From a virus (taxonomy: Duplodnaviria; Caudoviricetes): a DNA stretch of 53,138 nucleotides. Location of the stretch: the IMG/VR virus record IMGVR_UViG_3300036792_000197, positions 1-53,138 of that record. The stretch is one strand, 5' to 3'. A program made the translations under genes and the position numbers. How positions within the stretch are numbered: the stretch's first letter is position 1; every line of letters begins with the position of its first letter. Of this stretch, positions 2,628 to 45,510 are shown one piece after another. The notes under the pieces are model-generated. The model was not told the origin of the DNA. It saw only the letters and a list, made by a program, of their open reading frames with translations, and did not search any database.

Positions 2628-2960
2628 GTGGCTGATTCGGGCGCGCTGCGGGTGCGCCGGGCCCGCGCTCACGCGGCCGGCGATCACTCGCTGTGCAAGC
2701 GCTGCGCGGCTGTTCGCGTTGACGCGCCGCCACGCCTGACGGCCCTCCCGCCGGTGCCGCGTGACGCGAGCGCGGCCGAGGTTGACGCGGCGCTTGAGAT
2801 GCGCCGGCTGGCCCTCCGCCTGGTGACCGCGCACGAGAGCGAGCCGGCGAACACGCTCCTGGCGCGCGAGCTGCGGATGACGCTCGCCGAGCTGATGCCG
2901 AAGGGCAAGCAGGACGCTGATGCCGACCTCACGGGGCTCTTCAGCGCTTTGCAAGCCTAG
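2628..2960 (+). CDS. terS: Terminase small subunit
   Basis: GGAGGG RBS; RRARAHAAGDHSLC N-terminus and ARELRMTLAEL helix; position before terL. Confidence 0.7.
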   Translation: MADSGALRVRRARAHAAGDHSLCKRCAAVRVDAPPRLTALPPVPRDASAAEVDAALEMRRLALRLVTAHESEPANTLLARELRMTLAELMPKGKQDADADLTGLFSALQA

Positions 2961-3858
2961 GTTCGCGACCCCGGCGACGCCCGGGCGGGCGAACCTGGCG
3001 GACGGCATCGCGAAGACGGCGCAGGTGCTGAACTTCCGCACGCCGCTGGGCCCGGGCCTGATGCCGTGGCAGCACGAGATGAACCAGGTCGCGACGGAGC
3101 TGGACAGCCGCGGGCGGCTTGTCTACCGCCAGGTGGTCATCGAGGTGATGCGGCAGCAGGGCAAGTCGGTTGACCTGCTGTCGATGATGATCGCGCGGGG
3201 TTTGCGGCGGCCGGGGACGCAGATCTCGTACACGGCGCAGACGCGGCTGGACGCGCGGCACCGGATGATCGACGTGTGGTGGCCGCGTATCCAGGGCTCG
3301 AAGCTGGCGCGGTTCATTGACATCCGCAAGGGGTCGGGCTCGGAGGCGCTGGTGTTCGCGAACGGGTCGATGCTGGGCCTGGTGAGCAACACGCAGACCT
3401 CCGGTCACGGTGACAACCTGGACCTGGGCGTGATCGACGAGGCGTGGGCGCAGCATGATGATCACCTGGAGCAGGCGATGCGCCCGGCGATGATGACGCG
3501 GGACGCGCAGCTGTGGGTGGTGTCGGCGGCGGGTGACGAGCGGTCTGAGTACTTCCGCCGGAAGGTGGAGGACGGCCGGAGCCGCGCGCAGATGGGCGTG
3601 ACGGAGGGCGGCTGCTACGTCGGCTACTCGGCGCCGGATGACGCGGAGCCGGGGGACCCGGCGACGTGGCGGGCGTGCATGCCGGCGCTGGGGATCACGG
3701 TGACCGAGGAGACGGTGGCGACGGACTTCGGGCTGATGGAGCTCAGCGAGTTCCGCCGAGCGTACTTGTGCCAGTGGCCGGAGGTCGCGAAGCCGGGCTG
3801 GGGCGTGATCGGCCAGGACGCGTGGGGCGCGGCGGCCGCGCCGAGCGGGCTGCTGTGA
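2920..3858 (+). CDS. terL: Terminase large subunit, ATPase domain gene
   Basis: LMPWQ, Walker A RQQGKS, Walker B LGVIDEAW, VSAAG motif III, FRRAYLCQW. Confidence 0.9.
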   Translation: MPTSRGSSALCKPRFATPATPGRANLADGIAKTAQVLNFRTPLGPGLMPWQHEMNQVATELDSRGRLVYRQVVIEVMRQQGKSVDLLSMMIARGLRRPGTQISYTAQTRLDARHRMIDVWWPRIQGSKLARFIDIRKGSGSEALVFANGSMLGLVSNTQTSGHGDNLDLGVIDEAWAQHDDHLEQAMRPAMMTRDAQLWVVSAAGDERSEYFRRKVEDGRSRAQMGVTEGGCYVGYSAPDDAEPGDPATWRACMPALGITVTEETVATDFGLMELSEFRRAYLCQWPEVAKPGWGVIGQDAWGAAAAPSGLL

Positions 3859-4364
3859 GCGGCGAGGTCGCGTTCGGGGCGGCGATCAGCGAGGACCGGA
3901 AGCTGGCGTCGGTGGTCGCGGCAGGGCGCAGCGCGGCGTCGGGGAAGGTGCTGGTCGACCTGGCGCCGTACTACGGTCACCCGCGGGCTGTGGTGGCCCG
4001 GCTGGGGGAGCTGTACGAGAAGCATGACCCGGTCGCGGTGGTGGTGAACGCGAAGGCGCAGTCGGGGACGCTGGTGGAGCCGCTGAAGACGGCGGGGATC
4101 ATCGCGGTGCTGCCGTCGGCGGAGGACGTGGCGGTGGCGCACGGGCAGTTCCTGGACCTGGTGAACGACGGGGGCCTGGAGCACCTGGACCAGAAGCCGC
4201 TGACGGACGCGGTGCGGGCGGCGCAGCAGCGGCCGTTGTCGGGTGCGAAGGCGTGGGACCCGAAGGCGCCGGTGGACCAGTCGCCTCTTGTGGCGGCGAC
4301 TTTGGCGGTGTGGGCGTTCCTGCGGTGGGAGGAGCTGGCCGCGCCGGGCGTGTGGAATATCTAG
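3855..4364 (+). CDS. terL: Terminase large subunit, nuclease (RNase H-fold) domain gene, apparently degenerate active site
   Basis: GTGA overlap; VAFGAAISEDR...VAVVVN...LEHLDQxxL...AWD...VDQSPLVAATLAVW matches the actinophage TerL C-terminus. Confidence 0.8.
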   Translation: MSGEVAFGAAISEDRKLASVVAAGRSAASGKVLVDLAPYYGHPRAVVARLGELYEKHDPVAVVVNAKAQSGTLVEPLKTAGIIAVLPSAEDVAVAHGQFLDLVNDGGLEHLDQKPLTDAVRAAQQRPLSGAKAWDPKAPVDQSPLVAATLAVWAFLRWEELAAPGVWNI

Positions 4365-4374
4365 GGAGGTCACG

Positions 4375-4635
4375 ATGCCAACACCGGAAAACGATCCTGC
4401 GGTAGGCGATCCGGTTATCCTGCGTGGCCGTATCAAGGCCATCGACAGTGGCGTCGCGCTTGTCGAGGTGTACCGGACGTACCCGGTCGGCGGCACCGTC
4501 GCAGTCCAGTGCGGAGCGCTGGAACTCAACGAGACGCCAGATGGCCCGGACGAAGCCGAGGCTTCCGACGAGGACCGTATCCGCGAGGCGATGAACGAGG
4601 CGCAGGAGCACCCTGGCCGGACCGTGACGAGGTAA
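4375..4635 (+). CDS. Hypothetical protein
   Basis: GGGAGG RBS; ATG 4375. Confidence 0.65.
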   Translation: MPTPENDPAVGDPVILRGRIKAIDSGVALVEVYRTYPVGGTVAVQCGALELNETPDGPDEAEASDEDRIREAMNEAQEHPGRTVTR

Positions 4636-5186: not shown

Positions 5187-6625
5187 TGAGGCTGGTTGAC
5201 CGGCTAATCCGCCGTGACGGCTACTGGGAGGGCATGGCGTCGGGCGCCGCGATCCTGACGACGTCCTACGGGTCGCCTGACCGTGAGCCGGTGATGCCGC
5301 AGCTGACAGGATGGGCGCAGCGGGCCAACGGGTCAAACGCCCCTGTGTTCGCCGCGATCCTGGTGCGGATGGCGCTGTTCAGCGAGATCACGTTCCAGTT
5401 CCAGGCCAAGGACGACAAGCACCTGTTCGGCAACCCGGCGCTCGCGAAGCTCGAGCAGCCGTTCGGGCCCGGCAGCACGACGCAGAACCTGCTCGCCCGC
5501 ATGGAGCAGGACGTGTCGCTGGCGGGGAACGCGTTCATCTGGGACGCGCCCGGCGACGGCCCGCTGGTGCGACTGCGGCCGGACTGGGTCACGATCATCT
5601 CCGAGGTCGTCCAGCTCGACGACGACCCTCGCGGCGGCTGGTACAGGCAGCCGGTCGGCTACTGGTTCGAGCCCCCGAAGGGCCTCGGCAACCAGCCGCC
5701 CGGGTTCTTCATCCCCGCGGAGGAAGTAGCGCACTGGGCGCCGGTCCCGGACCCGCAGGCGGACTTCCGCGGCATGTCGTGGCTGACCCCGGTGATGCGC
5801 GACATCCAGGGCGACGACGGGCTGAGCGTCTACAAGATCAAGTACTTGTCGAATAACGCGTCGCCGAACCTGCTGATCAAGTACGCGCAGAAGCTCCAGC
5901 CGGGCACGGTCGACAGCCTCCGGGAGCGGATGCAGGCCCGCTACGGCGGCCCAGACAACGCGTTCAAGACGCTGGTGCTCGACCAGGGCGCCGACGCGAC
6001 GGTGATCGGCAACAACCTCGCGCAGATGAACTTCGACGCGGTGCAGAGCGCCGGCGCCGAGCGGATCCTGGCGGCGGCGAACGTCCCGGCGGTCCTGGTC
6101 GGCCTGGAGCCGCTGCGCGGCGCGGGCCGCGGCTACCAGGAGTCGATGCAGAAGTTCGCCAACCTGTTCGCCCGGCCGCAGTGGCGCTCAGCGTGCGCGA
6201 CGCTGGAGAAGCTGGCGGACGCCCCCGCAGGGAACCGGCTGTGGTTCGACACCTCCGACGTTGCGGCGCTGCAGGACGGGGAGATGGAACGCGGGCAGAC
6301 GGTCCTGGTCAAGTCTCAGGCGGTGCTGGCGCTGAACCAGGCGGCCAGGTACGAGCCGGACTCGATTGTCACCGCGGTCAACTCCGGTGACCTGACGCAG
6401 CTGAAGCCGCTGCCCAATCCCCCGCCGCCGCTGCCCGCCGGCGGCCCGGCCGTGCAGCACATGCTCCCGCAGACGCCGCCGGGGGCGACGGCCGAGCCGC
6501 TGCCGTCGTCGATGCCGCGGTTGCCGGTGGGGTCGACCTCGCCGGGGGACGGCGGGAACGGCACACGGCCGGGTCCGCTGCCGACAAGCGCGCGGCGGGC
6601 ACTGAACGGAGCCAGTCATGACTGA
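5186..6625 (+). CDS. Portal protein (HK97 family) with Pro-rich C-terminal tail
   Basis: DVSLAGNAF, LRPDWV, FRGMSWL, ILAAANVPAVLVG motifs; position after terL. Confidence 0.92.
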   Translation: MRLVDRLIRRDGYWEGMASGAAILTTSYGSPDREPVMPQLTGWAQRANGSNAPVFAAILVRMALFSEITFQFQAKDDKHLFGNPALAKLEQPFGPGSTTQNLLARMEQDVSLAGNAFIWDAPGDGPLVRLRPDWVTIISEVVQLDDDPRGGWYRQPVGYWFEPPKGLGNQPPGFFIPAEEVAHWAPVPDPQADFRGMSWLTPVMRDIQGDDGLSVYKIKYLSNNASPNLLIKYAQKLQPGTVDSLRERMQARYGGPDNAFKTLVLDQGADATVIGNNLAQMNFDAVQSAGAERILAAANVPAVLVGLEPLRGAGRGYQESMQKFANLFARPQWRSACATLEKLADAPAGNRLWFDTSDVAALQDGEMERGQTVLVKSQAVLALNQAARYEPDSIVTAVNSGDLTQLKPLPNPPPPLPAGGPAVQHMLPQTPPGATAEPLPSSMPRLPVGSTSPGDGGNGTRPGPLPTSARRALNGASHD

Positions 6626-7223
6626 CGGATGGGCGGCCCGGTGGGCTGGCGCGTGGGCAGGCGGCGCGCAGAGGTTCAACCACAGCCACGCCCCGGCAGG
6701 GTCACCGACGGGCGGCCAGTTCAGCACCAGCGGCGGCGGCAGCAGCTCGTCCGGGAGCGGCAGCGCCAAGGGCGGCGGCAAGGCCGCGGCGAGGCCGCTG
6801 GACGCGCACCAGAAGCACATGGCGCACCTCGCCCGCGTGCGGAACGTGGCCGCCCACCCGGCCTCGGCCACGGCGGCTGACCGGGCGCACGCGAAGGCCG
6901 CGCTGCTCACCCAGGCCAGAGCCGACCGGCTGAAGATCACGGCCCTGCAGGCGCAGCTGAAAAGCCTGACAGCCCAGGAAGCCAAGGCCGTCGCAACCGC
7001 CAAGCACACGGCAGCGAAGGCGGCGACCGCGAAAGCCGGGCCGAACCTGAAGAAATCCGTCGCGCACGCCGCGGCGGCCAAGAAGCCGGCAACGGCCAAG
7101 AAGACGACGACGACGACGGCTAAGAAGCAGACGCTGAAGCAGCAGATCGCCGCCGTGGAGGCGCAGATCGCCAACCTGACAGCGCAGGCGAAATCGGACG
7201 AGGCCGCGGCGGCGAAACTGTGA
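6618..7223 (+). CDS. Lys/Ala-rich putative internal head protein
   Basis: FNHSHAPAGSPTGGQF motif followed by a basic Ala/Lys-rich coiled region; between portal and protease. Confidence 0.65.
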   Translation: MTDGWAARWAGAWAGGAQRFNHSHAPAGSPTGGQFSTSGGGSSSSGSGSAKGGGKAAARPLDAHQKHMAHLARVRNVAAHPASATAADRAHAKAALLTQARADRLKITALQAQLKSLTAQEAKAVATAKHTAAKAATAKAGPNLKKSVAHAAAAKKPATAKKTTTTTAKKQTLKQQIAAVEAQIANLTAQAKSDEAAAAKL

Positions 7224-7279
7224 CCGGCGACCACCTCGAGCAGCACGCAGCCACGGAAAAGCACGCAGGAAGGGCAGCG

Positions 7280-8296
7280 ATGGCCGACACGAAGGCACCC
7301 GCCAGGCCTTACGGCGACGTGAAGTACGCCGACCCGAAGAACGGCAAGTACCCCATCGACACCGCGGAGCACGCCCGGGCGGCCTGGTCGTACATTAACC
7401 AGCAGAAGAACGCTGGCGAGTACCCGATGAACGGCGTCACCCTGTCCGAGGTGAAGGACGCGATCATGTCGGCGTGCAAGAAGTTCGGCATCGACGTGTC
7501 CAACGACAGCGGCCGCGCCGCCGCGCCGCCGGAGATCGTCCGCTGGTACGCGCTGGAGGACATGCACATCGTGACCCGCGGCGAAGGTGACGGCAGCGGC
7601 CGCGTCGTCGAGGCGTTCGCCGCCGTGTTTGACCAGCCGGCCGAGATCAAGGACTTCGAGGGCCACTACCTGGAGACCATCGACCGCACCGCGTTCAATA
7701 AGCGGCTGGCGGACCTCGAGCGGTCCAGGGGCGGCTTCGCGTCGGTGAAGGTGCTCTACAACCACGGGATGACCTTGCAGGGCACCCCGTCGGAGCGGTT
7801 CTCCATGCCGGTCGGCACGCCGCTGCGCGACGGCGGCATCGTGGCCACCGACCGCGGGCTGCTGACCCGCACCGAGTACAACCGGACGCCGCTGGCCGAG
7901 GAGGTACTGGAGCTGATCCGCTCCGGCTCGGTCACCTCCCAGTCGTTCACCGGCCGGATCGTCCGCTCTGACCCGCAGCTCGGCCGCGGCCGGCAGCACC
8001 GCCCCGCCGGCGGGGAGCTGCCGCACGTGCGCCGCACCGAGCTGGGCCTGCGCGAGTACGGGACTGTCGTGTGGCCCGCGTACGAGGGCGCCGAGATCTT
8101 CGGCGTCCGCATGTCCACTCCCGGTACCTGGGAGCCGGAACAGGTTGACGAGGCACTTCCGCCGGATGCAGAAGCCGCCGCCGGTGAGCCGCCCGCGCCC
8201 CTCGAGGGCGACGAGCACTCGGCCCGGTATCACCAGCACGCGCTCTACGCGCTCCGCTCTAAGGAGCTGCGCGAGAAGCACGGGCTGGCCTGGTAA
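7280..8296 (+). CDS. HK97-type prohead protease with N-terminal DUF6582-like domain
   Basis: PYGDVKYADP..KYPIDTAEHARAAWSYI N-domain; EAFAAVFD, VLYNHG, SQSFTG, EYGTVVWPAYEGA protease motifs. Confidence 0.88.
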   Translation: MADTKAPARPYGDVKYADPKNGKYPIDTAEHARAAWSYINQQKNAGEYPMNGVTLSEVKDAIMSACKKFGIDVSNDSGRAAAPPEIVRWYALEDMHIVTRGEGDGSGRVVEAFAAVFDQPAEIKDFEGHYLETIDRTAFNKRLADLERSRGGFASVKVLYNHGMTLQGTPSERFSMPVGTPLRDGGIVATDRGLLTRTEYNRTPLAEEVLELIRSGSVTSQSFTGRIVRSDPQLGRGRQHRPAGGELPHVRRTELGLREYGTVVWPAYEGAEIFGVRMSTPGTWEPEQVDEALPPDAEAAAGEPPAPLEGDEHSARYHQHALYALRSKELREKHGLAW

Positions 8297-8319
8297 CCAG
8301 ACCGAAGGAGGCGCGGCAG

Positions 8320-9726
8320 ATGGCCACGCTGAAGGAAAAGTCCGAGGAGATGGCCCGCATCAAGGCCGAGCTCCAGCGGATGGAGACCTCCGAGGAGACC
8401 ACCGAGGAGAACGACGGCGACCTGCGCGACACCCTCATCGAGCGGTGGAAGCAGCTCGACGAGGAAACCAAGCCGATCATCGCGCGGATGGAGCAGATCC
8501 GCGCCATTACCCGCTCGTCGGCCGACCCGGCGAACCTTGAAGGCCCGGACGGCGGCAGCTCCGGGGGCTACTACGGCGGCGGCTCCCCGGATCTCGTGAT
8601 CCGCACGAACCGCAGCCCGTACGAGGACCTTGACGCGGTCAGGTCCAGGGTCGTGACCCGCGCCGACCTGCGCGCCCGGGCCCTGGACGCGGTGGAGCTG
8701 GAGGCCAGGCGCGGGAACCTGTCCCACGACTACGCCGAGGCCGCCACGGTCAAGGTGCAGGACAACCCGGGGATCGCCCGGCACCTGCTGCTGACCGGGT
8801 CGGAGGAGTACCAGGAGGCGTTCCGCGCCTACGTCGAGGACCCGCAGGGCATGGCCCAGCGCGCCGCGCTGTCGCTGACCCTGGCGAACGGCGGCTACCT
8901 GCTGCCGTTCGTACTCGACCCGACGATCGTGCTCACGAACACGGGCAGCGCGAACCCGTGGCGGCGCATCTCCAACGTGAAGCAGACCACGTCCAACACG
9001 TGGAACGGCGTCACGTCGGCGGGCGTCAACGCGGCCTGGCTCGCTGAGGGCACCGCCTCAACCGACGGCACCCCGACCGTCGGAAACATCCAGATCACGC
9101 CGGCGAAGGCCGCCGCCTGGGTGTTCGGCTCCTACGAAGTCCTCGAGGACACCGACTTCGGCCAGCAGCTCCCCATGCTGCTCGCCGACGCCAGGGACCG
9201 CCTGGAGGAGAACGCGTTCGCGATCGGCGCCGGCACCGGCGGCGTGCCGCAGGGCGTCATCACCGGCGCGACCACCGTCGTCACCACGGCGACCACCACC
9301 GTCGTCGCGGTCGGCGACGTGTACGGGCTCCAGGGCGCGCTGCCGCCCCGGTTCCGCAACGCGCCGGGCGCGGCCTGGGCGGCGAACGTGTCGATCATCA
9401 ACACGTTCCGGCAGCTCGACACCGCCGGCGGCGCGTCGTTCTGGACGAACCTCGGCAAGGGCGCCCCGGAGACACTGCTCGGCGCCCCGATCTACGAGTC
9501 CTCGTCGATGTCGGGCGCCAAGACGTCCGGGTCCCTTATGGCCGTTTTCGGCGATTTTGGGCAGTTCTACGTGATCGATCGCGTGGGAGTCAGCCTTATC
9601 TATGAGCCTTTGGTCAAGGACCAGTCCACGGCCCTACCGTCAGGGCAAGCTGGCTGGTTCATGTTCTGGCGCGTGGGCTCAAAAGTGGCCGTACCCAACG
9701 CATTTCGGGTCATGAAGGGCCTGTAA
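8320..9726 (+). CDS. Major capsid protein (HK97 fold, N-terminal delta domain)
   Basis: Coiled N-terminus; GGYLLP, GxGTGGVPQG, TLLGAPIYES, VFGDFGQFY, R.G..V..PNAF. Confidence 0.95.
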   Translation: MATLKEKSEEMARIKAELQRMETSEETTEENDGDLRDTLIERWKQLDEETKPIIARMEQIRAITRSSADPANLEGPDGGSSGGYYGGGSPDLVIRTNRSPYEDLDAVRSRVVTRADLRARALDAVELEARRGNLSHDYAEAATVKVQDNPGIARHLLLTGSEEYQEAFRAYVEDPQGMAQRAALSLTLANGGYLLPFVLDPTIVLTNTGSANPWRRISNVKQTTSNTWNGVTSAGVNAAWLAEGTASTDGTPTVGNIQITPAKAAAWVFGSYEVLEDTDFGQQLPMLLADARDRLEENAFAIGAGTGGVPQGVITGATTVVTTATTTVVAVGDVYGLQGALPPRFRNAPGAAWAANVSIINTFRQLDTAGGASFWTNLGKGAPETLLGAPIYESSSMSGAKTSGSLMAVFGDFGQFYVIDRVGVSLIYEPLVKDQSTALPSGQAGWFMFWRVGSKVAVPNAFRVMKGL

Positions 9727-9735
9727 AACCTGATA

Positions 9736-9779
9736 GCATCCTTTCTGGCGGACAGGAAATCTGCCGCCAGAAAGGATGC
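9736..9779 (+). promoter_or_regulatory. 16-bp perfect inverted repeat covering the RBS of the downstream HNH gene
   Basis: GCATCCTTTCTGGCGG / CCGCCAGAAAGGATGC; AGAAAGGA lies in the 3' arm, GTG at 9783. Confidence 0.8.
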
Positions 9780-9782
9780 CCA

Positions 9783-10319
9783 GTGAGACTGCAAGATCAG
9801 AAGTGCCTGGACTGCGACAAGCCGGTCGGCCCGAAGGGCAGCAAGGGCCGCTGCCTAGGCTGCAATCAGCGTCTTCGCCGTGCGGCAACCAAGGCGGCAC
9901 GGAAGCCCTGTACGCGACCTGGCTGTACCAGGTTCATCACGGCACCCAGCTCTCCGGTGTGCGACATGCACCGCAACCGCATGCGCCGCACCGGCGAGTA
10001 CGGGCCAGCGGACCAGCTCATCGCAACCGACGGCGAAGGGTCCATCGACCAGCACGGCTACCGCGTGCTCCGCTTCGGCGGCTACCCGAACCGCACAGAC
10101 ATCTACGAGCACCGCCTCGTGATGGAACAGCATCTCGGCCGTCCGCTGGAGGACTGGGAGCATGTCCACCACAAGAACGGCATGCGCGCGGACAACCGGC
10201 TTGAGAACCTCGAACTGTGGGCTCAGTGGCACCGTCAGCCGTTCGGCCAGCGCGTCGCTGACCTCGTGGCGTTCGTCGTGGGTCACTACCCGGATGAGGT
10301 CCGGGAGGCCCTGTCGTGA
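9783..10319 (+). CDS. Free-standing HNH homing-type endonuclease with N-terminal Zn fingers
   Basis: GYR..., YEHRLVME.HLGRPL...EHVHHKNGMRADNRLENLEL; CxxC and CxxxxC...CxxH. Confidence 0.9.
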   Translation: MRLQDQKCLDCDKPVGPKGSKGRCLGCNQRLRRAATKAARKPCTRPGCTRFITAPSSPVCDMHRNRMRRTGEYGPADQLIATDGEGSIDQHGYRVLRFGGYPNRTDIYEHRLVMEQHLGRPLEDWEHVHHKNGMRADNRLENLELWAQWHRQPFGQRVADLVAFVVGHYPDEVREALS

Positions 10320-10504
10320 GTGCTCTCAACGCGACTGAGCGCGAGGTCTGGCGCGTCTGGGGCCTGCTGTCGGATGACGAGCCGTCGCCGGTCAAGCGCA
10401 TCGCCCGCGCACTGAACATGACGCCGGCGGATGTGGCGTTCATCGTCTACCCGGCCGAGGAGTTCGGCCGGTGGGACGACAACCAGGAGCCTCCCCTCCG
10501 CTAG
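10316..10504 (+). CDS. Small hypothetical protein (possible HTH)
   Basis: GTGA overlap; PVKRIARALNMTPADV. Confidence 0.5.
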   Translation: MSALNATEREVWRVWGLLSDDEPSPVKRIARALNMTPADVAFIVYPAEEFGRWDDNQEPPLR

Positions 10505-10519
10505 AAAGGCGGTCTGACG

Positions 10520-10927
10520 GTGGCGAACAAATACGCATTGCAGCCCTTCGTGATCCAGCTGGCGTCGGGTGCGATGCACTTCGTCGACCAGGGCGCGATG
10601 CGGGACAGCGCGAGCGCGGTGGTGACGGCGGCGCCGTCGATGTTCACGTCGGCGGTCACGCTGGCGGCGACCACGGTCGCGGCGCCGAACCCGAACCCGG
10701 TCCCGGTGTCGGTGACGGTGTCGAGCGGCACGGTGACCGCGATCGCGGTCAACGGGGTGAGCACCGGGCAGACGTCAGGCACGTTCACGGTGCCCGGCTA
10801 CGGGTCGATCACCGTGACGTACAGCGTCGCCCCGACGCTGACGACGGCGGACATCCCGCCGACGGCGTCGGCCGTGATGAGCCCGCTGCTGGCGGGTTAC
10901 CTGGCCGCCTACCCGGTGGGCCCGTGA
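10520..10927 (+). CDS. Thr/Ser/Val-rich putative head decoration protein
   Basis: AGAAAGG RBS; beta-rich VSSGTVTAIAVNGVSTG...SITVTYSVAPT. Confidence 0.65.
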   Translation: MANKYALQPFVIQLASGAMHFVDQGAMRDSASAVVTAAPSMFTSAVTLAATTVAAPNPNPVPVSVTVSSGTVTAIAVNGVSTGQTSGTFTVPGYGSITVTYSVAPTLTTADIPPTASAVMSPLLAGYLAAYPVGP

Positions 10928-10941
10928 GGAGGAGAGGCGCG

Positions 10942-11178
10942 ATGGCGCAGCAGGCGCAGGACACGTTCGTGGCGTTGCTGGATGACGGCTCGGAGCGGCT
11001 GGTGGCGAAGGGCGAGGTGCTGCCCGATTCGCATGAGCTGGTGAAGCGCGACCAGAAGGGTTCCGGGACGCTGTTCCGGCCGCTGAACCTGGAGGGGGAC
11101 GACGCGCCCGCGAAGGCGCGTCCCACCGCCCAGGCTCCGGCTCCGAAGACGCCCCCGAAGGCGGCCGGCAATGGCTGA
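10942..11178 (+). CDS. Small capsid-adjacent structural protein
   Basis: GAGGAGAGG RBS; VAKGEVLPDSHELVK...LF motif typical of post-capsid genes. Confidence 0.7.
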   Translation: MAQQAQDTFVALLDDGSERLVAKGEVLPDSHELVKRDQKGSGTLFRPLNLEGDDAPAKARPTAQAPAPKTPPKAAGNG

Positions 11179-12341: not shown

Positions 12342-12971
12342 TTGCATCCTTCGGCGATGGCGTTTGCCTGCTCGGCGCTGACCGAGGCTGACGTGCGCGG
12401 GCAGCACGTGCTCGAGGCGGGAGCATTTGACGTCAACGGGTCGGTGCGCGGCCACGTGGAGGGCCTTGGCCCTGCGTCGTACATGGGCACGGACATGCGG
12501 CTCGGGCCCGGCGTTGACGTCCTGTGCACGGCCGAGGAACTTCCGTCCTTGTTCAACGTGGCAATGGTCGGCCCGACAAAAGGCGTGGTCATCTCGACGG
12601 AGATGCTGGAGCACGCGGCGGACTGGCAGGCGGCGATGCACGGCATGATCACCGCACTGCGGCCGGGCGGCGTCCTGGTGCTGACGACCCGGTCGGCGGG
12701 GTTCCCGGTGCACGGCTACCCCGATGACCACTGGCGGTTCCCGGTGGAGTCGATGCGGACGATCCTGGGCGCGGCCGGCCTGACCGTGGAGCGGTGCGAG
12801 CCGGACCCGGACCCGGCATCGCCGGGCGTGTTCGCGAAGGCCCGCAAGCCGGACGGCTGGACGTGGCCGTATGGCCTAGAGGACGCGTGGGCGGCGGTTC
12901 ACGTCGACCCGGTGAATATCAGCGGCTCCGGCGGCCTGACGCTGCCGGCGCCTCAACCTGTGAGCGGGTGA
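12342..12971 (+). CDS. Class I SAM-dependent methyltransferase
   Basis: VLEAGAFDVNGS, GTDMRLGPGVD, ISTEMLEH, LRPGG, HGYPDDHWRF. Confidence 0.88.
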   Translation: MHPSAMAFACSALTEADVRGQHVLEAGAFDVNGSVRGHVEGLGPASYMGTDMRLGPGVDVLCTAEELPSLFNVAMVGPTKGVVISTEMLEHAADWQAAMHGMITALRPGGVLVLTTRSAGFPVHGYPDDHWRFPVESMRTILGAAGLTVERCEPDPDPASPGVFAKARKPDGWTWPYGLEDAWAAVHVDPVNISGSGGLTLPAPQPVSG

Positions 12972-16038: not shown

Positions 16039-17082
16039 ATGCGCTGGCTGGTGATTCACCCGGGCCCCGGGTTCAGTGTGCACGACGTCTACGTCGGCTG
16101 GGTTGAGGCGCTGCGGGCGCTCGGCGAGGACGTGCTGGAGTACAACCTGGGCGACCGGCTGACGGCGTATGACGTGGCGCTGGTCGAGACCGGGAACGTG
16201 GATGCCGCCGGCCATCCCGAAGTGCGGAAGCTGTTTACCCGCGAGCAGGCGATACACCTGGCGGCCGACCGGATCTTCGCCGACTGCATGAAGTGGTGGC
16301 CGCACGTGGTCCTCGGCGTGTCCGCGTTCTTCATCCCGCCGTGGTACCTGGACGTGCTGCAAGACCGGGGAATGAAGACGGTCCTGCTGCACACCGAGTC
16401 GCCGTACCAGGACGACGAGCAGCTGAAGCGGGCGGCGCACGCCAACCTGAACCTGCTCAACGACCCGCAGAACATCGCCGCTTACCGCGACCTCGGCCCG
16501 GCCGAGTACGTGCCGCACGCCTGGCGGCCATCCGTTCATCATCCCGGCCCCGCGCTGCCTGAGCTGAAGTCGGACTTCGCGTTCGTCGGCACCGGCTTCA
16601 AGTCGCGGGTGGAGTTCTTCGAGCGGATGGACTTCTCCGGCCTGGACGTGCTGCTAGCCGGGACGTGGCCCGACCTCGCCGAGGACTCGCCGCTGCGCAA
16701 GCACATGCCGGGCGGCGAGGTGGTGCAGTGCACCGACAACGAGGAAACCGCGGCGATTTACCGCAGCTCGAAAGCCGGAATTAACTTCTACAGGCGCGAG
16801 TCTGAGCCGGGCCACGCGGGCGAGGGCTGGGCAATCGGCCCGCGCGAGATCGAGATGGCGGCTACTCAGCTGTTCTTCTTGAGGGACAAGCGCCCCGAAG
16901 GCGACGAGCTGTTCCCGATGCTGCCGACCTTCGACGGCCCGGAAGACGCGGGCGAAAAGCTCCGCTGGTGGCTGGCGCACGACAGCCAGCGGGAGAAGGC
17001 TGCCGCCGCGGCGAGGGCCGCCGTGGCTGACAGGACGTTCGAAAACCACGCGCGGCGGCTACTTCAGCTGCTCGACAAGTAA
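16039..17082 (+). CDS. GT-B fold glycosyltransferase (CgeB / Glyco_trans_1_2-like)
   Basis: HTESPYQD, YVPHAW.P..H.P, DFAFVGT, IYRSSKAGINFYR, GPREIEMAA, RTFENHARRLL. Confidence 0.85.
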   Translation: MRWLVIHPGPGFSVHDVYVGWVEALRALGEDVLEYNLGDRLTAYDVALVETGNVDAAGHPEVRKLFTREQAIHLAADRIFADCMKWWPHVVLGVSAFFIPPWYLDVLQDRGMKTVLLHTESPYQDDEQLKRAAHANLNLLNDPQNIAAYRDLGPAEYVPHAWRPSVHHPGPALPELKSDFAFVGTGFKSRVEFFERMDFSGLDVLLAGTWPDLAEDSPLRKHMPGGEVVQCTDNEETAAIYRSSKAGINFYRRESEPGHAGEGWAIGPREIEMAATQLFFLRDKRPEGDELFPMLPTFDGPEDAGEKLRWWLAHDSQREKAAAAARAAVADRTFENHARRLLQLLDK

Positions 17083-17094
17083 GGGAGTGACCGC

Positions 17095-17514
17095 ATGCCA
17101 TCACAGAGAGAACACGGCCGGCAGGGCGTCGTATACCTCGGCATCACCCAGTCCGCCGGGGTGTCCGCCGTCGCGACGCCGGTCACGTTCCTGACCGACT
17201 GGACGATGAACAAGACCACCGCCAAGGTCGACGTCACCGCGTTCGGCGACACCAACCTGACGTACGTCGCGGGCCTGCCCGACGCGTCGGGCGATTTCAG
17301 CGGCTGGTATGACTTCTTCACGCCGCAGACCTACACCGCGGCGGGCGACGGAATTCCGCGGAATTTCTATTTGTACCCAAATTCGCTGAATGCTAGCGAC
17401 TATTTTTACGGCCAGATTCTTCCTGATTTTAGCGCGGCGGGCGGCGTAAGCGCCGCGGTGTCACTCAAGTGCACCTGGAATGCGGCGGGGCCGATCAACC
17501 GCGCAGGCATGTAA
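17095..17514 (+). CDS. Major tail (tube) protein
   Basis: HGRQGVVY, W...VDVTAFGDTN.TYVAGLPDASG.FSGWYD, FYLYPN, YFYG. Confidence 0.85.
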   Translation: MPSQREHGRQGVVYLGITQSAGVSAVATPVTFLTDWTMNKTTAKVDVTAFGDTNLTYVAGLPDASGDFSGWYDFFTPQTYTAAGDGIPRNFYLYPNSLNASDYFYGQILPDFSAAGGVSAAVSLKCTWNAAGPINRAGM

Positions 17515-30959: not shown

Positions 30960-31178
30960 CTATCGCTCCTGCCCCTCGGGGTTCCGGTGGTAGATCTGCT
31001 CCGGCCCGATCGGCTCCCCGTGGTCGGTGCAGCCCCCCACGAACATCCCCTTGCCCCCGCGCGACCGGAACCCCTCGTCGGTCATGTCGAGGTTCCACGC
31101 CACCGACCCGCCCCGCAGTATCCGCCAGCACGCCCGCAGGGCGAGGAACCGGGTGTGCTCGTTGTAACGTCGCCGCAT
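30960..31178 (-). CDS. Small hypothetical protein (paralogue of 31244-31483)
   Basis: GGAAGGA RBS inside the 42-bp repeat; ACWRILRGGSVAW. Confidence 0.6.
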   Translation of the reverse strand: MRRRYNEHTRFLALRACWRILRGGSVAWNLDMTDEGFRSRGGKGMFVGGCTDHGEPIGPEQIYHRNPEGQER

Positions 31179-31217
31179 GTCCTGATCCTTCCAGCACTTT
31201 GGCCAGCGCGTCGACCT
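31176..31217. repeat. 42-bp direct repeat, copy A
   Basis: 40/42 identical to 31481-31522. Confidence 0.9.
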
Positions 31218-31243
31218 CCGCTGCTGCGGACGGGCACGCGGGA

Positions 31244-31483
31244 CTAGAGGGTGAGGCCTACGCCGGCAGTGGGGCCCGGTTCGGTCGGCCCGATGAACGC
31301 GCTCTCCTTGGCGATCCCATGCGCGCCCTCGAAGTAGAGCAGGCACGGGCTGCCGTCCGGCATGCTTCCGAGTCGCGCCCGGTATACCAGCGGGCGCCCG
31401 CGCAGCACGTGCCACGCCAGGCCAGCCCGTGTCAGCGACAGCCGAGTTGGCAGGTCCCGGATCTTGCGTCGCAGCTCATCCAT
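31244..31483 (-). CDS. Small hypothetical protein
   Basis: Same RBS/ATG repeat; LAWHVLRGRPLVY. Confidence 0.6.
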   Translation of the reverse strand: MDELRRKIRDLPTRLSLTRAGLAWHVLRGRPLVYRARLGSMPDGSPCLLYFEGAHGIAKESAFIGPTEPGPTAGVGLTL

Positions 31484-32573: not shown

Positions 32574-32741
32574 CGGGTTAGTTGGACGATCGGTGGGTTA
32601 GGTTTCCAACCCGCTCCCGTAGCGGGCTAACCGTGGCCCTGACCTGCGTTTTGTTAGCTGAGTTAGGCGTCGGCATGGGGTTAGCCGCAGGCCTTGCGGA
32701 GGGTCCCTGGAGACGGTTCGCGATGGGGGCACGGCTAACTC
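32574..32741. repeat. GTTAG/CTAAC repeat array directly downstream of the traB-like gene (candidate clt)
   Basis: Seven copies in about 170 bp, in both orientations. Confidence 0.65.
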
Positions 32742-34783
32742 ACCTCCCGCTGCCTGATCACCCGGTGCAGGTCGTCCAGGTCGAGCGTCGGGACGTTGCC
32801 CGGGTTCGTCGTCGGCACGCCCGCGGCCATCAGCAGCTTGCGCAGCTGCACGCCCGTCAGCCCCCGGTACTCGCCCCATGACGGCGCGAGGTTGTGCAGC
32901 AGGTCCGGCAGCTCCGACACCCGTACCTTGCCGGTGCGGTGCGCCGTGACCGTGTCCAGGTCTGCCAGCAGGTCCCGCGACACGATCGCCAGCGGGTGCT
33001 CAGTGCCGGGCACCGGAAGGTCCCGTTCCGCCAGTGCCGTTATGGCACGCTGGACGATCGGCGGCACCTGCGGAGTGTCGACGCGGTACGCCTGGATCAT
33101 CTCCGACCGCGCCTCGCCGGCGAATCCCTTGCACAGCGCGATGCCCCGGTCGGTGCCAGGGATCAGCTCGGTTGCCCGGTGGCCGGCCGAGTGCGCGCCC
33201 GGGCCGAGAATCGCGTCATTGGCGTAGATGTCCGCCAGCGCGTACGCCACGCCGACCGTGCAGTTCGTGGTGACGTCCCGCGGCATCGACCCGCGAACCG
33301 GCGCCTGCGTGCTGACCTTGATGTGCACGCCGCGCTTGCGGTCCAGTTTGACGTTTTCGCCGAGCAACTGCGCGAAGTCCTTGCCGAACTTGCGGTGGGT
33401 GATCGGCACGTGTGCCTCTTCGACCAGCACGAACACCGGGTGCAGTCCCACGCCCGCGTGCGCGATCTCCCTGGTGACCTCCTGGACGCCGTAGTCGACG
33501 AGCAGCTGCCCGCGGCGCTGCAGCTCCTCCTTTAGCAGTTCCTGCTCTTCGAGCATCCGCTCGATGACCTCGTCCTCTGCGCCCATCAGGTAGCGCGAGC
33601 AGCGCGGCTTGAAGGCCTCGAAGTCGAAGTTGGTGTCCGGCACGTAGATTCGGACCTCGGTGACGATGTCGAGCGTGTAACCGCAGGCCACGACGCGCGC
33701 GCCGTTGCTCTTGCCCTGCTCGGGCATCCCGCCGTCGATTGAGTTCCGGCCGATGACCGGGATATAAGCCAGGTCGCCTTTCAGTGTGCGGCCGAACGGC
33801 AGCCCCTTGAAGACGTCGGTGAAGCCCTCGGTAAGTAGCGGGTACGGTCCCGCTCCCTCTTCGAGCGCGCCCTTGTCGGCGATCCAGGTCTTGAGGATCG
33901 CGGCCTCGCTGCCGACCGACGGCCACACTTCCTTGGCGGCCCGGTGGACGCCGGCGGCGTAGTCGGCGCGGCGGCGCACTACCTTCTCGGCCGCCAGGCC
34001 CGGCAGCCGGATCTCCGAGTAGGTGCCGCGCCCTTCCTGCCGGCAGGAGACGACGAACTGAAGCGGCGCGCCCGCCTTCAGGTAGTCGGTGATCTGCGGG
34101 AAACGCATGTTCTTCAGGGCGTTCGTCAGCAGCAGCTCGGTGATCTCGTGGTCGACGTCGGCGTCGGCCGCGGTGCGCGCCCACAGCGGCGCGAGGCTGC
34201 CGCCGCGGCGGCCAGCCGTATACAGCACGGCTACGACAATGAACGGCCCGGCGATGACGCCGATATGCGTGATGGTCCTCGCGTCGCGGATCAGCGCGGC
34301 GGCCAGGTCGAAGAGCGCCGCGGGGTTGCCGAGCGCCCAGCCGCCCAGCAGCATCAGGATCACCGCGGCGAACAGCAGCCAGTGAATGTTCCTGGCCACC
34401 TCGATCAGCATGCCGACCCGGCCGCGGGTCCGCTCATGGCGCCGGTGCCGCTCGTCGGCCGCGTTCTTCAGCAGCAAAGCGGCCTTGTCGGCCTCGCCCT
34501 GCGCGGCGTACTGGTGCGCCATCCGCTCGGCGAGGGTGCGCCCCTGGCGCCTGCTGCGGGCCAGCACGACCGCGCCCGCGGCAACGTAGCTGGCGTGGCG
34601 GGCGACCGCCTTCGTGTGCGGGTGCGTGACCACGACCGTGACCGTCTGGAAAACCTGGATGACGACGGGCCGCGGTGCCTCCTGCTCGTCGACGATCTCG
34701 CCGAGCGGCGGCAGCTCGGCGACCACGCCCGTGACCACCTCGGCCACCTCGGCGTCGTCCGGCACGGCGGGCAGCCTGCTCAT
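32735..34783 (-). CDS. FtsK/SpoIIIE-family DNA translocase of the actinomycete TraB/TraSA type
   Basis: Two N-terminal TM segments; Walker A GGMPEQGKS; Walker B VLVEEAH; RKRGV...STQ; AILG...AGHRATEL; C-terminal wHTH-sized domain; ATGA-coupled start at 34783. Confidence 0.85.
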   Translation of the reverse strand: MSRLPAVPDDAEVAEVVTGVVAELPPLGEIVDEQEAPRPVVIQVFQTVTVVVTHPHTKAVARHASYVAAGAVVLARSRRQGRTLAERMAHQYAAQGEADKAALLLKNAADERHRRHERTRGRVGMLIEVARNIHWLLFAAVILMLLGGWALGNPAALFDLAAALIRDARTITHIGVIAGPFIVVAVLYTAGRRGGSLAPLWARTAADADVDHEITELLLTNALKNMRFPQITDYLKAGAPLQFVVSCRQEGRGTYSEIRLPGLAAEKVVRRRADYAAGVHRAAKEVWPSVGSEAAILKTWIADKGALEEGAGPYPLLTEGFTDVFKGLPFGRTLKGDLAYIPVIGRNSIDGGMPEQGKSNGARVVACGYTLDIVTEVRIYVPDTNFDFEAFKPRCSRYLMGAEDEVIERMLEEQELLKEELQRRGQLLVDYGVQEVTREIAHAGVGLHPVFVLVEEAHVPITHRKFGKDFAQLLGENVKLDRKRGVHIKVSTQAPVRGSMPRDVTTNCTVGVAYALADIYANDAILGPGAHSAGHRATELIPGTDRGIALCKGFAGEARSEMIQAYRVDTPQVPPIVQRAITALAERDLPVPGTEHPLAIVSRDLLADLDTVTAHRTGKVRVSELPDLLHNLAPSWGEYRGLTGVQLRKLLMAAGVPTTNPGNVPTLDLDDLHRVIRQREVS

Positions 34784-34941
34784 GTCCACGACAGGACCCC
34801 CTCGCGCTGCAGCCGCTGGCAGCGCTGGTAAACCGCCCCGGCTGCGGCGACGGTGACGACCGCGGCGGCCACCATGGCACCGTGGACGCCAAGCAGCGCC
34901 AGGGCGAAACCGAGGACGGCCAGGACAGTGCGGGCGCTCAT
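34780..34941 (-). CDS. Small membrane protein (Spd-like accessory)
   Basis: 53 aa, hydrophobic, ATGA-coupled to traB-like gene. Confidence 0.65.
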   Translation of the reverse strand: MSARTVLAVLGFALALLGVHGAMVAAAVVTVAAAGAVYQRCQRLQREGVLSWT

Positions 34942-35114
34942 GATGCCGGCCCTCCTGGCGCGCAGGTCCACATGTAGTGCTGGTGGCTCGGCATGCGCTG
35001 CGCTGTCTGCCCGGTGGCGCATTTCGGCTTCGGCGTGCACGAGGTGTCAACCGGCAGGATGCCAAGGGCCGCCAGGACTGCCACGGTGAGCCAGCGGCTG
35101 GCGCGGGCGCTCAT
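34938..35114 (-). CDS. Small secreted/lipoprotein-like Cys protein
   Basis: MSARASRWLTVAVLAALGILPVDTSC...C...C; ATGA overlaps on both sides; absent from the ORF track (58 aa). Confidence 0.55.
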   Translation of the reverse strand: MSARASRWLTVAVLAALGILPVDTSCTPKPKCATGQTAQRMPSHQHYMWTCAPGGPAS

Positions 35115-36564: not shown

Positions 36565-36765
36565 TGCACATGAGCACCCCGCGAACCCCCGTATCAGCCC
36601 GTAGCTACCCGTAGTAAAGTGCGCAGGCCGAAGGCAGGAAACGAACGCGCATTCCTGCTGCCAGCACCCCCGCACTGACATGCCGAGACAGTACCATCCG
36701 GCCATCTAGCTGGCAGCACCGCTAAACCGGGCCCGCCTGGTGCACATCGGGTGCACTCGCGGGCG
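36565..36765. promoter_or_regulatory. Candidate attP region
   Basis: Gap at the 3' end of int; CCCGTA x3 at 10-bp period (36588, 36598, 36608); GTGCAC repeats on both sides; core not identified. Confidence 0.5.
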
Positions 36766-38059
36766 CCCCGGAGAAGAACGAGTCGACCGCCGCGCGGCCG
36801 TCGTCGTCGCTTCCGCCCGGCATCATGTGCGCGTAGATACCGACCACCGTCTTGACGCTGTCGCCGATCCACGACGCTACCCGGACCACGTCCCGCCCGG
36901 CCCGCAGCTGCGTGCTCACGAACGTGTGCCGCAGCGCGTGGAGGCCGTCGTCGCGCGGCCGGCCATCCTCCGGCGTCACCCCGGCCCGTTTCGCCGCCCG
37001 CCGCCACAGGTTGTTCAGCGACGTCCCGCGCACCGGCCGCCCGCCCGGCGAGGTGACCAGCAGCCGCACCGTCAGCGGCTTGCCGTGCCGCTCCCGGTCG
37101 GCCGGGTCGTGCCATGGCAGCGTCACCGACGCGGCGGGGAACTCGCCGAGGTGCCGCTGAAGGCGGCGCTTCGTCTCCGGCGACAGCGGGGCACTGTGCG
37201 GCTTGCGGTTCTTCAGCGGGCCGAACCACAGCTTGCCGTCCACGTACTTGAGCTGGCGCACCACCCGTACCCGCGGGTCGTCGCGCTTCAGCCAGTCGAC
37301 GTCATCGATACCCAGGCCGAGCATCTCGCCCTGGCGCATGCCCGTGCCCGCGCCCAGGTCGAGCAGGACGCGGTATCGGTCGGGCAGCTGCCCGCGCATC
37401 GCCTCGAGCTGCTCGAGCGACCACGGGCGCGCGAGGTGCTCGCCGACCTTCGGCCACTCCACCGACGGGACGCGGGTGGGGTCGCGCATCACGATGCCGT
37501 CGCCGATCGCCATCCGGAAGACGTAGGACACGTCGCCCATCACGTGCCGGGCCCGGATCGCCGACAGGGGGATCGCCGTCGCCCACGCCGAGGTGATGCT
37601 CGGCTGCGCGGCGAGCAGGCTCATGGCGTGCTGGCCGATAGACGGCGCCCCCGTAGGCGTCCTCCCGCTGCCAGCCTCGCCCTCGTACACGTGCAGCCGC
37701 AGCCGCAGCTCCAGGTCGGCGGCGGTCTCCGGGTTGGGGATCTTCCGCGCCGCCCGCAGCTGCTCGGCGTACCGCTGCAGGGTGACCTCCCCGGCGCGCG
37801 GGTCGACGTAGGTCCGCGTCAGGATCGCCGCGGCGACGACCTTGTCGTATGCCTCGGCGTGGAGCTCCGGGTCGGCGCCGTCGCGCAGCGCGAAGTTCCG
37901 CGCCCGCTGCTTCCCGGTCGCCGGGTCGCGCCAGCGCACCTGCCAGCGGTCGCCCTTCAGGTGACGGGTGCCCGGGTAGAGCTTGTTCCGGCCGCGGCCG
38001 CACTTGCACGGCTGGTCGCCTGCGTCCGGGTCCTTGTGCCAGCGGTCGTAGACGCCCAT
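36722..38059 (-). CDS. int: Tyrosine integrase
   Basis: RWQVRW arm domain; TGMRQGE (R), LK (K), HALRH, IYAH (Y); AGGAG RBS before ATG 38059. Confidence 0.93.
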   Translation of the reverse strand: MGVYDRWHKDPDAGDQPCKCGRGRNKLYPGTRHLKGDRWQVRWRDPATGKQRARNFALRDGADPELHAEAYDKVVAAAILTRTYVDPRAGEVTLQRYAEQLRAARKIPNPETAADLELRLRLHVYEGEAGSGRTPTGAPSIGQHAMSLLAAQPSITSAWATAIPLSAIRARHVMGDVSYVFRMAIGDGIVMRDPTRVPSVEWPKVGEHLARPWSLEQLEAMRGQLPDRYRVLLDLGAGTGMRQGEMLGLGIDDVDWLKRDDPRVRVVRQLKYVDGKLWFGPLKNRKPHSAPLSPETKRRLQRHLGEFPAASVTLPWHDPADRERHGKPLTVRLLVTSPGGRPVRGTSLNNLWRRAAKRAGVTPEDGRPRDDGLHALRHTFVSTQLRAGRDVVRVASWIGDSVKTVVGIYAHMMPGGSDDDGRAAVDSFFSGAPASAPDVHQAGPV

Positions 38060-38233
38060 GGTGCTCCTGAAGACGATGTGACTGGGGTGTACCCGGGTGC
38101 ACCCGGGAGCTGCGGAAAATCCCACAGGAGAACTATTGCAACAGGCAAGTAACGGGGAGTAGTTTAACGATTCCCGTATAAATCTGTGGGAATTTTCGGT
38201 AAAACCGTAGTTGGACCGTAGGGGGGGCTTGTA

Positions 38234-38545
38234 ATGGCGCAAGTTAAAGTTGTTTCTGTTGTTTCGAGGATTGCTGCTGTTGTCTTCTGGTGTCTTGCAT
38301 TGGTCACCCTGTTTACCCCGTCGATGCAAGGCGGCGGCCGCATGGTCCTCGCCGCGGTCCTGGCGGGAACGGCCACCGTCGTCGCGGCGCTCGCCTGGCT
38401 GGAGCAGCAGCGCGACGACCGCGGCGGCGACACGCTGAAGCAGGTAACCGACGAGTACCGGCGGCGGGAGGCCGCGCTTATCAGGACGTTCGCCTATCTC
38501 GCCGAGGCTCCGGCACAGCCGCAACGTCACCTGCACCGCGCCTAG
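38234..38545 (+). CDS. Two-TM membrane protein in a low-GC patch between int and the repressor
   Basis: GGGGGG RBS; hydrophobic N-terminal half; AT-rich upstream region. Confidence 0.6.
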   Translation: MAQVKVVSVVSRIAAVVFWCLALVTLFTPSMQGGGRMVLAAVLAGTATVVAALAWLEQQRDDRGGDTLKQVTDEYRRREAALIRTFAYLAEAPAQPQRHLHRA

Positions 38546-40119: not shown

Positions 40120-40280
40120 CCCGCCCCGCGCAGCTCCCGGTCACCGCGTGCCGCGAGCCGTGGCCGCAGGCCGCCGGCGTCTACTGCACCCGCCCGAAGG
40201 ACCACAGGGGCGGCCACAAGGACGAGAACCAGAACCAGTACTGGCCGGCCGAAGAGACGCTTCCGGCGGTGACCAAGTGA
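40116..40280 (+). CDS. Small Cys/His protein
   Basis: ATGA coupling; C...CTRPKDH.GGH...W. Confidence 0.6.
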   Translation: MTRPAQLPVTACREPWPQAAGVYCTRPKDHRGGHKDENQNQYWPAEETLPAVTK

Positions 40281-45385: not shown

Positions 45386-45510
45386 GATCCAACTGTACGA
45401 CATACCATCCTGGTCTGACACCTTGATCTGTGACAGTGTTTTGCGATAGTGATTAAGCGTCCAGAGAATGCACTCTGGGAACCATGTGACGTTTTGAGAG
45501 GCAGGCCGCA

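Follow-up and report, generated by a model that had tools for sequence, protein, structure and literature searches.

Recoded 3′ end of a soil-phage capsid gene beside an optional HNH endonuclease gene: a probable homing-endonuclease conversion tract

Why should the last 63 codons of a major capsid gene differ so sharply in synonymous codon choice from the rest of the gene, while the protein that they encode keeps its capsid motifs? The question is raised by a soil phage with a complete-looking virus record of 53,138 bases – analysed over its whole length and called the window here – which has direct terminal repeats, a high G+C content and an integrase gene, and whose relatives are of Actinomycetota type. 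An earlier note on this DNA had read the patch, which abuts a free-standing HNH endonuclease gene, as the immunised target of such an enzyme, visible as a codon-usage scar. The reading that we favour, and hold to be probable though by no means secure, is that the patch is a homing-endonuclease conversion tract that may well carry the resistant target, and not simply a point-mutated site.

The patch itself (Table 1) is as described: both its coordinates (9535..9726, base 9535 being the first base of capsid codon 406) and its counts proved exact on recount, with A or T at the third position (A/T3) in 18 of the last 63 codons, in 1 of the 63 codons before them and in 31 of the 468 codons of the whole gene. 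Set against the remainder of the gene (13/405), this gives a Fisher p of 1.1e-9, and against the genome-wide rate of 9.2% (1320/14296 codons, taken from 60 heuristically called genes) a binomial p of 1.0e-5. A two-rate model over codons 200–468 places the change-point at codon 406, base 9535, with A/T3 of 0.02 before it and 0.29 after it (likelihood-ratio statistic 34.7), and total G+C falls from 0.74–0.77 at 9150–9400 to 0.55–0.59 at 9500–9850. The genome does have other patches as rich in A/T3: a count of 18 or higher is attained by 333 of the 10,576 sliding 63-codon windows, and nine other ORFs contain such windows – seven at 30960 onward, beyond the lysis genes, and two at 1887–2372 and 17095–17514. 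The retention of capsid motifs is borne out by the match to the Phage_capsid family PF05065 (E 4.4e-38), which runs from residue 191 to residue 466 over model positions 1–279 of 280, a full-length profile match that takes in the recoded C-terminus and places the protein among HK97-fold capsid proteins. Within the patch, the A/T3 codons concentrate on the best-conserved residues, D420–P430 and P440–R451.

Table 1. Features at and around the capsid gene of the window, with the basis or remarks for each
Feature	Position	Strand	Basis or remarks
Prohead protease gene	7220..8296	+	Upstream of capsid gene; PF04586 and PF20223
Major capsid protein gene (HK97-type)	8320..9726	+	Uninterrupted ORF, 468 codons + TAA, 468 aa; PF05065
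A/T3-rich synonymous patch, codons 406–468	9535..9723	+	18/63 versus 1/63; change-point; L083 comparison
Homologue of group I intron site 422/423	9585..9586	+	Occupied in L082, 293-nt insert
Homologue of group I intron site 445/446	9654..9655	+	Occupied in L011, L032, L035, L041, L079, L082, L151
Nearly invariant 15-mer, W-F-M-F-W, codons 446–450	9655..9669	+	Codon table, motif scans
Strong hairpin between capsid and HNH genes	9736..9779	+	Inverted repeat, 16+3 bp
Free-standing HNH endonuclease gene, 178 aa	9783..10319	+	Cys-rich N-terminal half, HNH_3 core
Small ORF, 62 aa, companion of this HNH type	10316..10504	+	No Pfam family
Conserved structural-module gene, 135 aa	10520..10927	+	tblastn; GC3 0.96

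The neighbour, too, is what the earlier note had taken it for: the next gene, on the same strand, encodes a free-standing protein whose residues 108–145 match HNH_3 (PF13392; E 4.4e-10, 39.5 bits against a cutoff of 24.8), with a core – H-H-x-N-G ... N-x3-N-L-E-L-W – that is invariant across 8 aligned homologues. Its closest homologues among post-capsid HNH proteins are those of the related loci L022 (81% amino acid identity), L080 (78%) and L157 (78%). A PDB sequence search with the protein returned nothing relevant (best E 0.78, to an unrelated JetC chain), and the structure predicted from the 8-row alignment has a pLDDT of 66 and a pTM of 0.37, with the catalytic stretch below 50. Terminase-assisting HNH proteins occur in HK97-like phages, and the protein might be such a DNA-packaging accessory, its adjacency to the patch being coincidental; that no further HNH gene was found among the 59 other window ORFs scanned would agree with this. 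Such a role is nevertheless highly improbable for a gene that lies between the capsid and structural-module genes, adjoining the capsid gene and away from the terminase ATPase ORF (2920–3858), that is absent in 58 of 107 classified relatives, that is replaced in its slot by unrelated nucleases and that survives in L016 as a truncated remnant.

These relatives come from protein-guided scans, which yielded 1 related locus in genomes (L001, an Actinomycetota MAG and the sole relative in that collection), 79 in viral contigs and 80 in metagenome contigs; the 145 loci with enough coverage were reduced, by merging those 99% or more identical, to 116 non-redundant relatives. A cultured-phage collection has no close relative: of 48 records, none covers 80% of 8320–10520, the best being Gordonia phage Eyre with 12% of the query at 71%. 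By Pfam, the slot that follows the capsid gene in the relatives holds HNH_3 with Cys-rich N-terminal modules (L004, L013, L014, L051), Endonuclease_7 (Endonuclease VII, or Endo VII; L010, L015, L019, L024) or GIY-YIG (L021, L026, L046). Across the 116, an endonuclease is present in 49 and absent in 58, with 9 unclassified, the metagenome loci having been classed as endonuclease-less by tblastn with 11 nuclease queries, with Pfam applied to a few. The capsid genes of L014 and L015 are 93.6% identical, the slot holding HNH in the one and Endo VII in the other, and in L080, whose HNH gene is of the window's type, 609 nt replace the 76-nt spacer of L062, with homology on both sides. Because of this swap and this replacement, the endonuclease gene can be regarded as optional and exchangeable, as would be expected of a free-standing homing endonuclease.

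The recoding follows the content of the slot. Expressed as an excess – A/T3 in codons 406–468 minus that in codons 100–405 – it amounts to 0.185 with an HNH gene (n=37), 0.145 with Endo VII (n=9), 0.136 with GIY-YIG (n=3) and 0.048 with none (n=58), the 9 unclassified loci being left out; for any endonuclease versus none, the Mann–Whitney p is 5e-10. Under greedy pairing of carriers with the nearest relatives that have no endonuclease, at a body identity of 0.80 or more and with each sequence used once, 27 of 30 carriers had the larger excess of their pair (sign test p = 8e-6); the pairs are not strictly phylogenetically independent. The A/T3 patch beside a slot endonuclease is real and general across the relatives.

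A cause other than homing would be a role of the region at the nucleotide level – as a promoter or an RNA structure serving downstream genes, or in slowing translation – or else some peculiarity of mutation at this place. It could account for the mild excess (0.048) that is present even without an endonuclease, strong in 8 of the 58 loci, and the region is indeed tied to a conserved hairpin, with copies of codons 446–450 recurring in the spacer. The strong association with endonuclease presence argues against such a cause, as does the absence of the patch from the closest endonuclease-less relatives (A/T3 in 3/62 codons in L083, 6/63 in L008 and 2/62 in L144); a scan of 8300–10600, patch included, gave 0 promoter-like sites, and the A/T3 positions vary from phage to phage, no other phage sharing more than 8 of the window's 18. 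We consider it improbable.

The same patch in HNH-less relatives, which the earlier note had named as evidence against its reading, is indeed found, in a minority: the excess is at least 0.15 in 8 of the 58 loci without an endonuclease (L005, L027, L054, L055, L093, L102, L105, L115). Pfam identified no nuclease domains in the downstream ORFs of these eight, and among carriers 6 of 49 have an excess below 0.08. A decay series in which the patch is retained offers a possible account of endonuclease-less loci that bear it: L022 has an intact HNH gene and 12/63 A/T3 codons in the patch, L016 a 72-aa HNH remnant and 16/63, and L027 no HNH gene, the companion small ORF and 22/63.

Comparison with the closest relative, L083 (90% amino acid identity, no endonuclease match downstream), separates synonymous change from change in the protein. 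In the patch, 56 of 62 residues are identical and 29 of the 56 identical-residue codons differ, against 79 of 364 in codons 13–405; L008 (no endonuclease, 83% amino acid identity) gives the same picture. Since synonymous differences in the patch exceed the upstream rate in these comparisons, the dS spike against HNH-less relatives that the earlier note had proposed as a check is present. The 29 differences comprise 15 with A/T in the window and G/C in L083, 2 of the reverse kind and 11 of G/C against G/C, and G/C-to-G/C differences rise only from 49/265 outside the patch to 12/35 within it.

This mostly directional excess of G/C-to-A/T changes (15 against 2), in a protein whose identity is unchanged at 56/62, also fits change in place: selected synonymous escape mutations across the recognition region or regions of one or several endonucleases, with an A/T bias supplied by A/T-biased mutation in high-G+C genomes. 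An immunised target of this sort would sit well with A/T3 codons placed on the best-conserved residues, and three nuclease families together with two intron sites at the capsid end could explain its breadth. We find it rather unlikely all the same: the patch extends over 190 nt, begins sharply on its 5′ side and, in the window, is mosaic; its W-F-M-F-W core leaves almost no synonymous freedom; and closer pairs of phages have abrupt tracts with many G/C-to-G/C changes, as imported sequence would show.

The shape of the divergent tract can be followed across the family. In the 49 carriers, mean A/T3 is 0.02–0.12 at codons 300–416 and then, in four 13-codon bins from codon 417 to the gene end, 0.34, 0.30, 0.31 and 0.23; for the 58 non-carriers, these four bins give 0.15, 0.16, 0.21 and 0.08. 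A strong change-point with an A/T-richer 3′ side is present in 30 of 49 carriers – at codons 415–424 in 18 of those 30 – and in 12 of 58 non-carriers. Five close pairs (L080/L062 and four others) show the pattern most directly, the upstream capsid gene being nearly identical and the onset of divergence abrupt: in L080/L062, codons differ at 18/40 in 428–468 versus 14/120 in 200–427, with cut-offs picked by eye, so that p-values for tracts are descriptive. In 30-nt bins of this pair, identity is 0.83–0.87 over the final 120 nt of the capsid gene and 0.97–1.00 in the next bins; the flank beyond the HNH gene, at 0.93–1.00, is not diverged, which makes the tract one-sided, towards the capsid gene. 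Many G/C-to-G/C changes occur in the tracts of close pairs, and these are apparently the mark of sequence of different ancestry. The codon table, on viewing, gave no clear strand asymmetry of C-to-T versus G-to-A around the presumed break, and in the first 15 codons of the 135-aa gene downstream AT3 is 0.16 in 8 carriers versus 0.08 in 7 non-carriers, small numbers with no clear effect.

In composition, the patch leans towards the endonuclease genes. For 46 carriers, the mean AT3 values of patch, endonuclease ORF and capsid body are 0.259, 0.211 and 0.086 (0.29, 0.17 and 0.02 in the window), and patch and endonuclease values are weakly correlated (rho 0.33, p 0.03); shared composition is not the whole story, because the AT3 of the patch (0.26) is above that of the endonuclease ORFs (0.21). 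Import from a family member of lower G+C was considered as a source and is insufficient, the patch AT3 of 0.29 exceeding the body AT3 of every relative (maximum 0.23).

No close copy of the window's patch was found among the relatives, the best overall being L083 (0.78) and L013 (0.767), and the patch is mosaic: against L095, which has a different HNH subtype, codons 439–467 are 86% identical and codons 406–438 71%, whereas L083 is 78% identical in both halves. Nor is the patch closer to those of L022 (nucleotide identity 0.70–0.71) and L080 (0.65–0.75) than to the patches of other phages, and since these two have the most similar HNH genes, tract and enzyme appear to reassort rather than to be strictly co-inherited. 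Strict co-transfer of the patch with the present HNH gene is ruled out, identity to L022/L080 being 0.67–0.72 in the patch, below that of the HNH gene (0.67–0.90) and of the capsid body.

It is because of its abruptness, its one-sidedness and its endonuclease-like composition that the patch looks like a conversion tract travelling with an endonuclease and not like a target mutated in place. The original claim of an immunised-target scar is supported in part, by the synonymous nature of the patch, by the adjoining optional free-standing endonuclease and by the A/T excess that follows the endonuclease (27/30 pairs). A scar in the strict sense is not supported, since a recognition site is much shorter than the patch of about 190 nt, in which G/C-to-G/C changes occur besides.

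On the conversion-tract reading, the patch would be the flank copied along with the optional HNH gene that separates the capsid gene from the structural gene after it. The HNH enzyme would cut the genome of a rival that lacks the endonuclease, at or close to the 3′ end of its capsid gene; repair of the break would draw on the carrier genome, and the stretch from the cut to the endonuclease gene would be overwritten with the carrier's version, which is presumably uncut. Through repeated events, this stretch would join the endonuclease compartment: with the protein held constant, its synonymous sites would drift to the lower G+C3 of endonuclease genes and turn mosaic. If break repair holds, we infer that this HNH type cuts between codon 428 and the start of its own gene, that is, within 9601–9782; the variants common to the four carriers of this type, at codons 412, 420, 428, 431, 443, 444 and 461, are candidates for resistance.

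The proposed process is of a known kind, to which intronless homing with co-conversion, collaborative homing and capsid-adjacent endonucleases all belong; what is new is where it is met, its read-out from composition and the statistics across the family. In intronless homing, conserved genes flank a nuclease gene that may be present or absent, and the flanks are overwritten along with it (PMC2988022; PMC2790892). The present locus resembles such systems in its clean presence/absence polymorphism and one-sided diverged tract, and differs from them in that its phage is rich in G+C, has an integrase gene and has relatives of Actinomycetota type, in having the major capsid gene as putative target and in that the tract is visible as a G+C3 drop and known from sequence alone. 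Endonuclease genes near capsid genes have also been described already (PMC10448857), and a limited literature search found no paper on a scar in third-position composition next to a homing endonuclease of a phage.

The capsid gene of this family is also a home of introns. Inserts are present in 12 of the 116 non-redundant relatives, about 265–295 nt long and in one case 975 nt, at about codons 195–210, 268–275, 380, 422 and 445 – at least five sites. The insert of L081 matches the group I intron model RF00028 above the gathering score (72 bits), and those of L064, L073, L082, L032, L079 and L061 match it below that score (E 1.4e-8 to 2.6e-3). Two of the insertion sites, 422/423 and 445/446, lie inside codons 406–468: the L082 insert at the first gave no Rfam match, and the inserts of L032 and L082 at the second match RF00028 below the gathering score (E 1.5e-5 and 1.2e-6). 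At the six loci whose 445/446 junctions were read, T is the last base of the exon before the insert, and the exon after it opens with the W446 codon. The window itself has no intron: its capsid ORF is uninterrupted, and the whole stretch gave no Rfam match, RF00028 included, at the gathering score or at E ≤ 0.1. Intron 445 and the endonuclease are not significantly associated: 4 of 6 intron loci have an endonuclease, versus 45 of 101 others (p 0.41), or 5 of 7 once L035, mis-mapped in the intron script, is added by eye.

An obvious comparison is F-CphI of cyanophage S-PM2, a free-standing Endo VII-type enzyme beside the intron-containing psbA; in collaborative homing, a free-standing nuclease cuts the intron insertion site of a neighbouring gene, and the intron protects the carrier (PMC6083498). 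Here, likewise, five relatives (L011, L032, L035, L079, L082) have the intron at 445/446 together with a downstream HNH gene, Endo VII-type genes occupy the slot of others, and the intron sites 422/423 and 445/446 fall within the endonuclease-linked stretch; unlike the F-CphI case, the window lacks an intron, and the relatives show no significant association of intron and endonuclease. Cluster J mycobacteriophages, which are actinobacteriophages, reportedly have group I introns in their capsid genes. The capsid inserts of the relatives, at about 265–295 nt and with seven RF00028 matches, are similar; the difference lies in the number of insertion sites, at least five in one gene family, and in the window being intron-free. 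In the hybrid atp6 gene of Allomyces mitochondria, a mobile endonuclease ORF brings a replacement 3′ end for its target gene. The window resembles it in that an essential gene, next to a nuclease ORF, has synonymous sites of foreign character at its 3′ end, but no displaced old 3′ end was found downstream of its capsid gene, some relatives having a copy of a 15-mer and no more.

That 15-mer, which encodes the W-F-M-F-W core, has a further copy, with at most 2 mismatches and on either strand, in the first 200 nt beyond the capsid stop of 13 of 115 relatives, where about 0.03 loci are estimated to be expected by chance. The post-stop copies form arms of the post-capsid hairpin; the window's hairpin retains only an 8-base core. 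A more daring reading, which we hold to be doubtful, casts the capsid 3′ end as a contested homing arena, in which nucleases of three unrelated families would compete with one another, and with two or more self-splicing introns, for one conserved 60-codon stretch, the A/T3 recoding would be adaptive, selected synonymous armour and the post-stop 15-mers would be functional – as an empty homing site, as a decoy or operator for the endonuclease or as an arm of a translation-sensitive hairpin gating endonuclease expression. If this were true, G+C3 drops could map endonuclease targets straight from metagenomes.

Phages exchange genes locally in a process whose driving force is seen in free-standing homing endonucleases, and to our knowledge targets are known for very few of these enzymes, mostly T4-like. 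Here, an endonuclease-linked stretch can be read from sequence alone in a high-G+C family, and the signal recurs in about a hundred uncultured relatives; if the conversion-tract reading holds, this would be a cheap way to find such tracts, to bracket cleavage sites and to choose substrates for enzymology. In soil phages whose relatives are of Actinomycetota type, the major capsid gene emerges as a hotspot of introns and nucleases, and, because capsid 3′ ends are mosaic, caution is needed when capsid genes serve as phylogenetic markers.

Some features of the spacer and of the genes that follow remain to be described. The hairpin between the capsid and HNH genes folds, as RNA, at -39.3 kcal/mol (z = -5.2; 0 of 200 shuffles as stable), and its 3′ arm contains the purine-rich ribosome-binding stretch of the HNH gene, 5–12 nt before the HNH start, a placement that suggests restrained translation of the HNH gene, for which there are precedents in T4. 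A scan for T-tailed terminators gave 0 sites, with none at the hairpin. In endonuclease-less relatives such as L008, the 135-aa gene stands directly 3′ of the capsid hairpin, and window positions 10554–11000 align with L008 positions 5526–5982. Between the HNH gene and this gene, positions 10317–10492 match the opposite strand of L022, L157, L016 and L027 at 76–87%, and the segment is thus inverted in the window.

The stretch of A/T-ending codons at the 3′ end of the capsid gene (codons 406-468) is equalled or exceeded in its content of such codons by stretches in other ORFs of the window, and a nuclease domain was found in none of the ORFs scanned (see the table).

Table. Coordinates of stretches rich in A/T-ending codons, of post-stop copies of the 15-mer and of capsid intron sites; L-numbers are loci of related phages with a homologous capsid gene
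Feature	Position	Loci or counterpart
A/T-rich third positions, ORFs	17095-17514, 30960-31415, 32735-35065, 40148-40900, 45134-45511, 46084-46929	window
A/T-rich third positions, integrase gene	36722-38797	window
Post-stop 15-mer copy	1389-1403	L083; counterpart within the window's capsid gene 9655-9669
Post-stop 15-mer copy, further loci		L011, L012, L018, L032, L048, L057, L066, L096, L116, L120, L144, L158
Capsid intron site	codon 445/446	L011, L032, L035, L041, L079, L082, L151
Capsid intron site	codon 422/423	L082
Capsid intron site	codon 380/381	L071
Capsid intron site	codon about 268-275	L076, L079, L082
Capsid intron site	codon about 195-210	L061, L064, L073, L076, L079, L081

The 15-mer that encodes W-F-M-F-W (capsid codons 446-450) recurs, with at most two mismatches, 4-48 nt 3′ of the capsid stop in 13 of the 115 relatives. 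These second copies – which lie on either the + or the - strand and form the arms of a post-capsid hairpin – may represent an empty homing site, an operator or an RNA switch.

Group I introns occupy at least five different insertion sites across the capsid genes of relatives, with three introns apiece in L079 and L082; among the relatives’ capsid inserts, only that of L081 exceeds the Rfam gathering score. The 975-nt insert of L061 (3034-4001), at capsid codon 200/201, gives intron-like matches at both ends (3012-3237 and 3911-3943); it may be an intron that contains an ORF of its own.

The HNH gene of L016 is reduced to a 72-aa remnant (5499-5714) covering positions 20-38 of the HNH_3 model, and L027, which has no HNH gene, retains the companion small ORF right after the capsid stop (4319-4465); these two loci and L022 together look like stages of endonuclease decay. 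The companion itself is the 62-aa ORF that follows the HNH gene in the window (10317-10492). In L022, L157, L016 and L027 it is encoded on the strand opposite to that of capsid and HNH; nucleotide identity between the window and these loci is 76-87% here, and the segment is a small inversion.

Elsewhere in the window, a 312-aa ORF (2920-3858) matches the terminase large-subunit ATPase; the next ORF (3666-4364), which overlaps it, showed no recognisable nuclease half. The gene for the terminase may have been split or carry a frameshift; Rfam detected no intron. Interspersed with the structural genes are a gene with a methyltransferase domain (12342-12971) and one resembling glycosyltransferases (16039-17082); in L049 and L050, weak glycosyltransferase matches are also found 3′ of the capsid gene.
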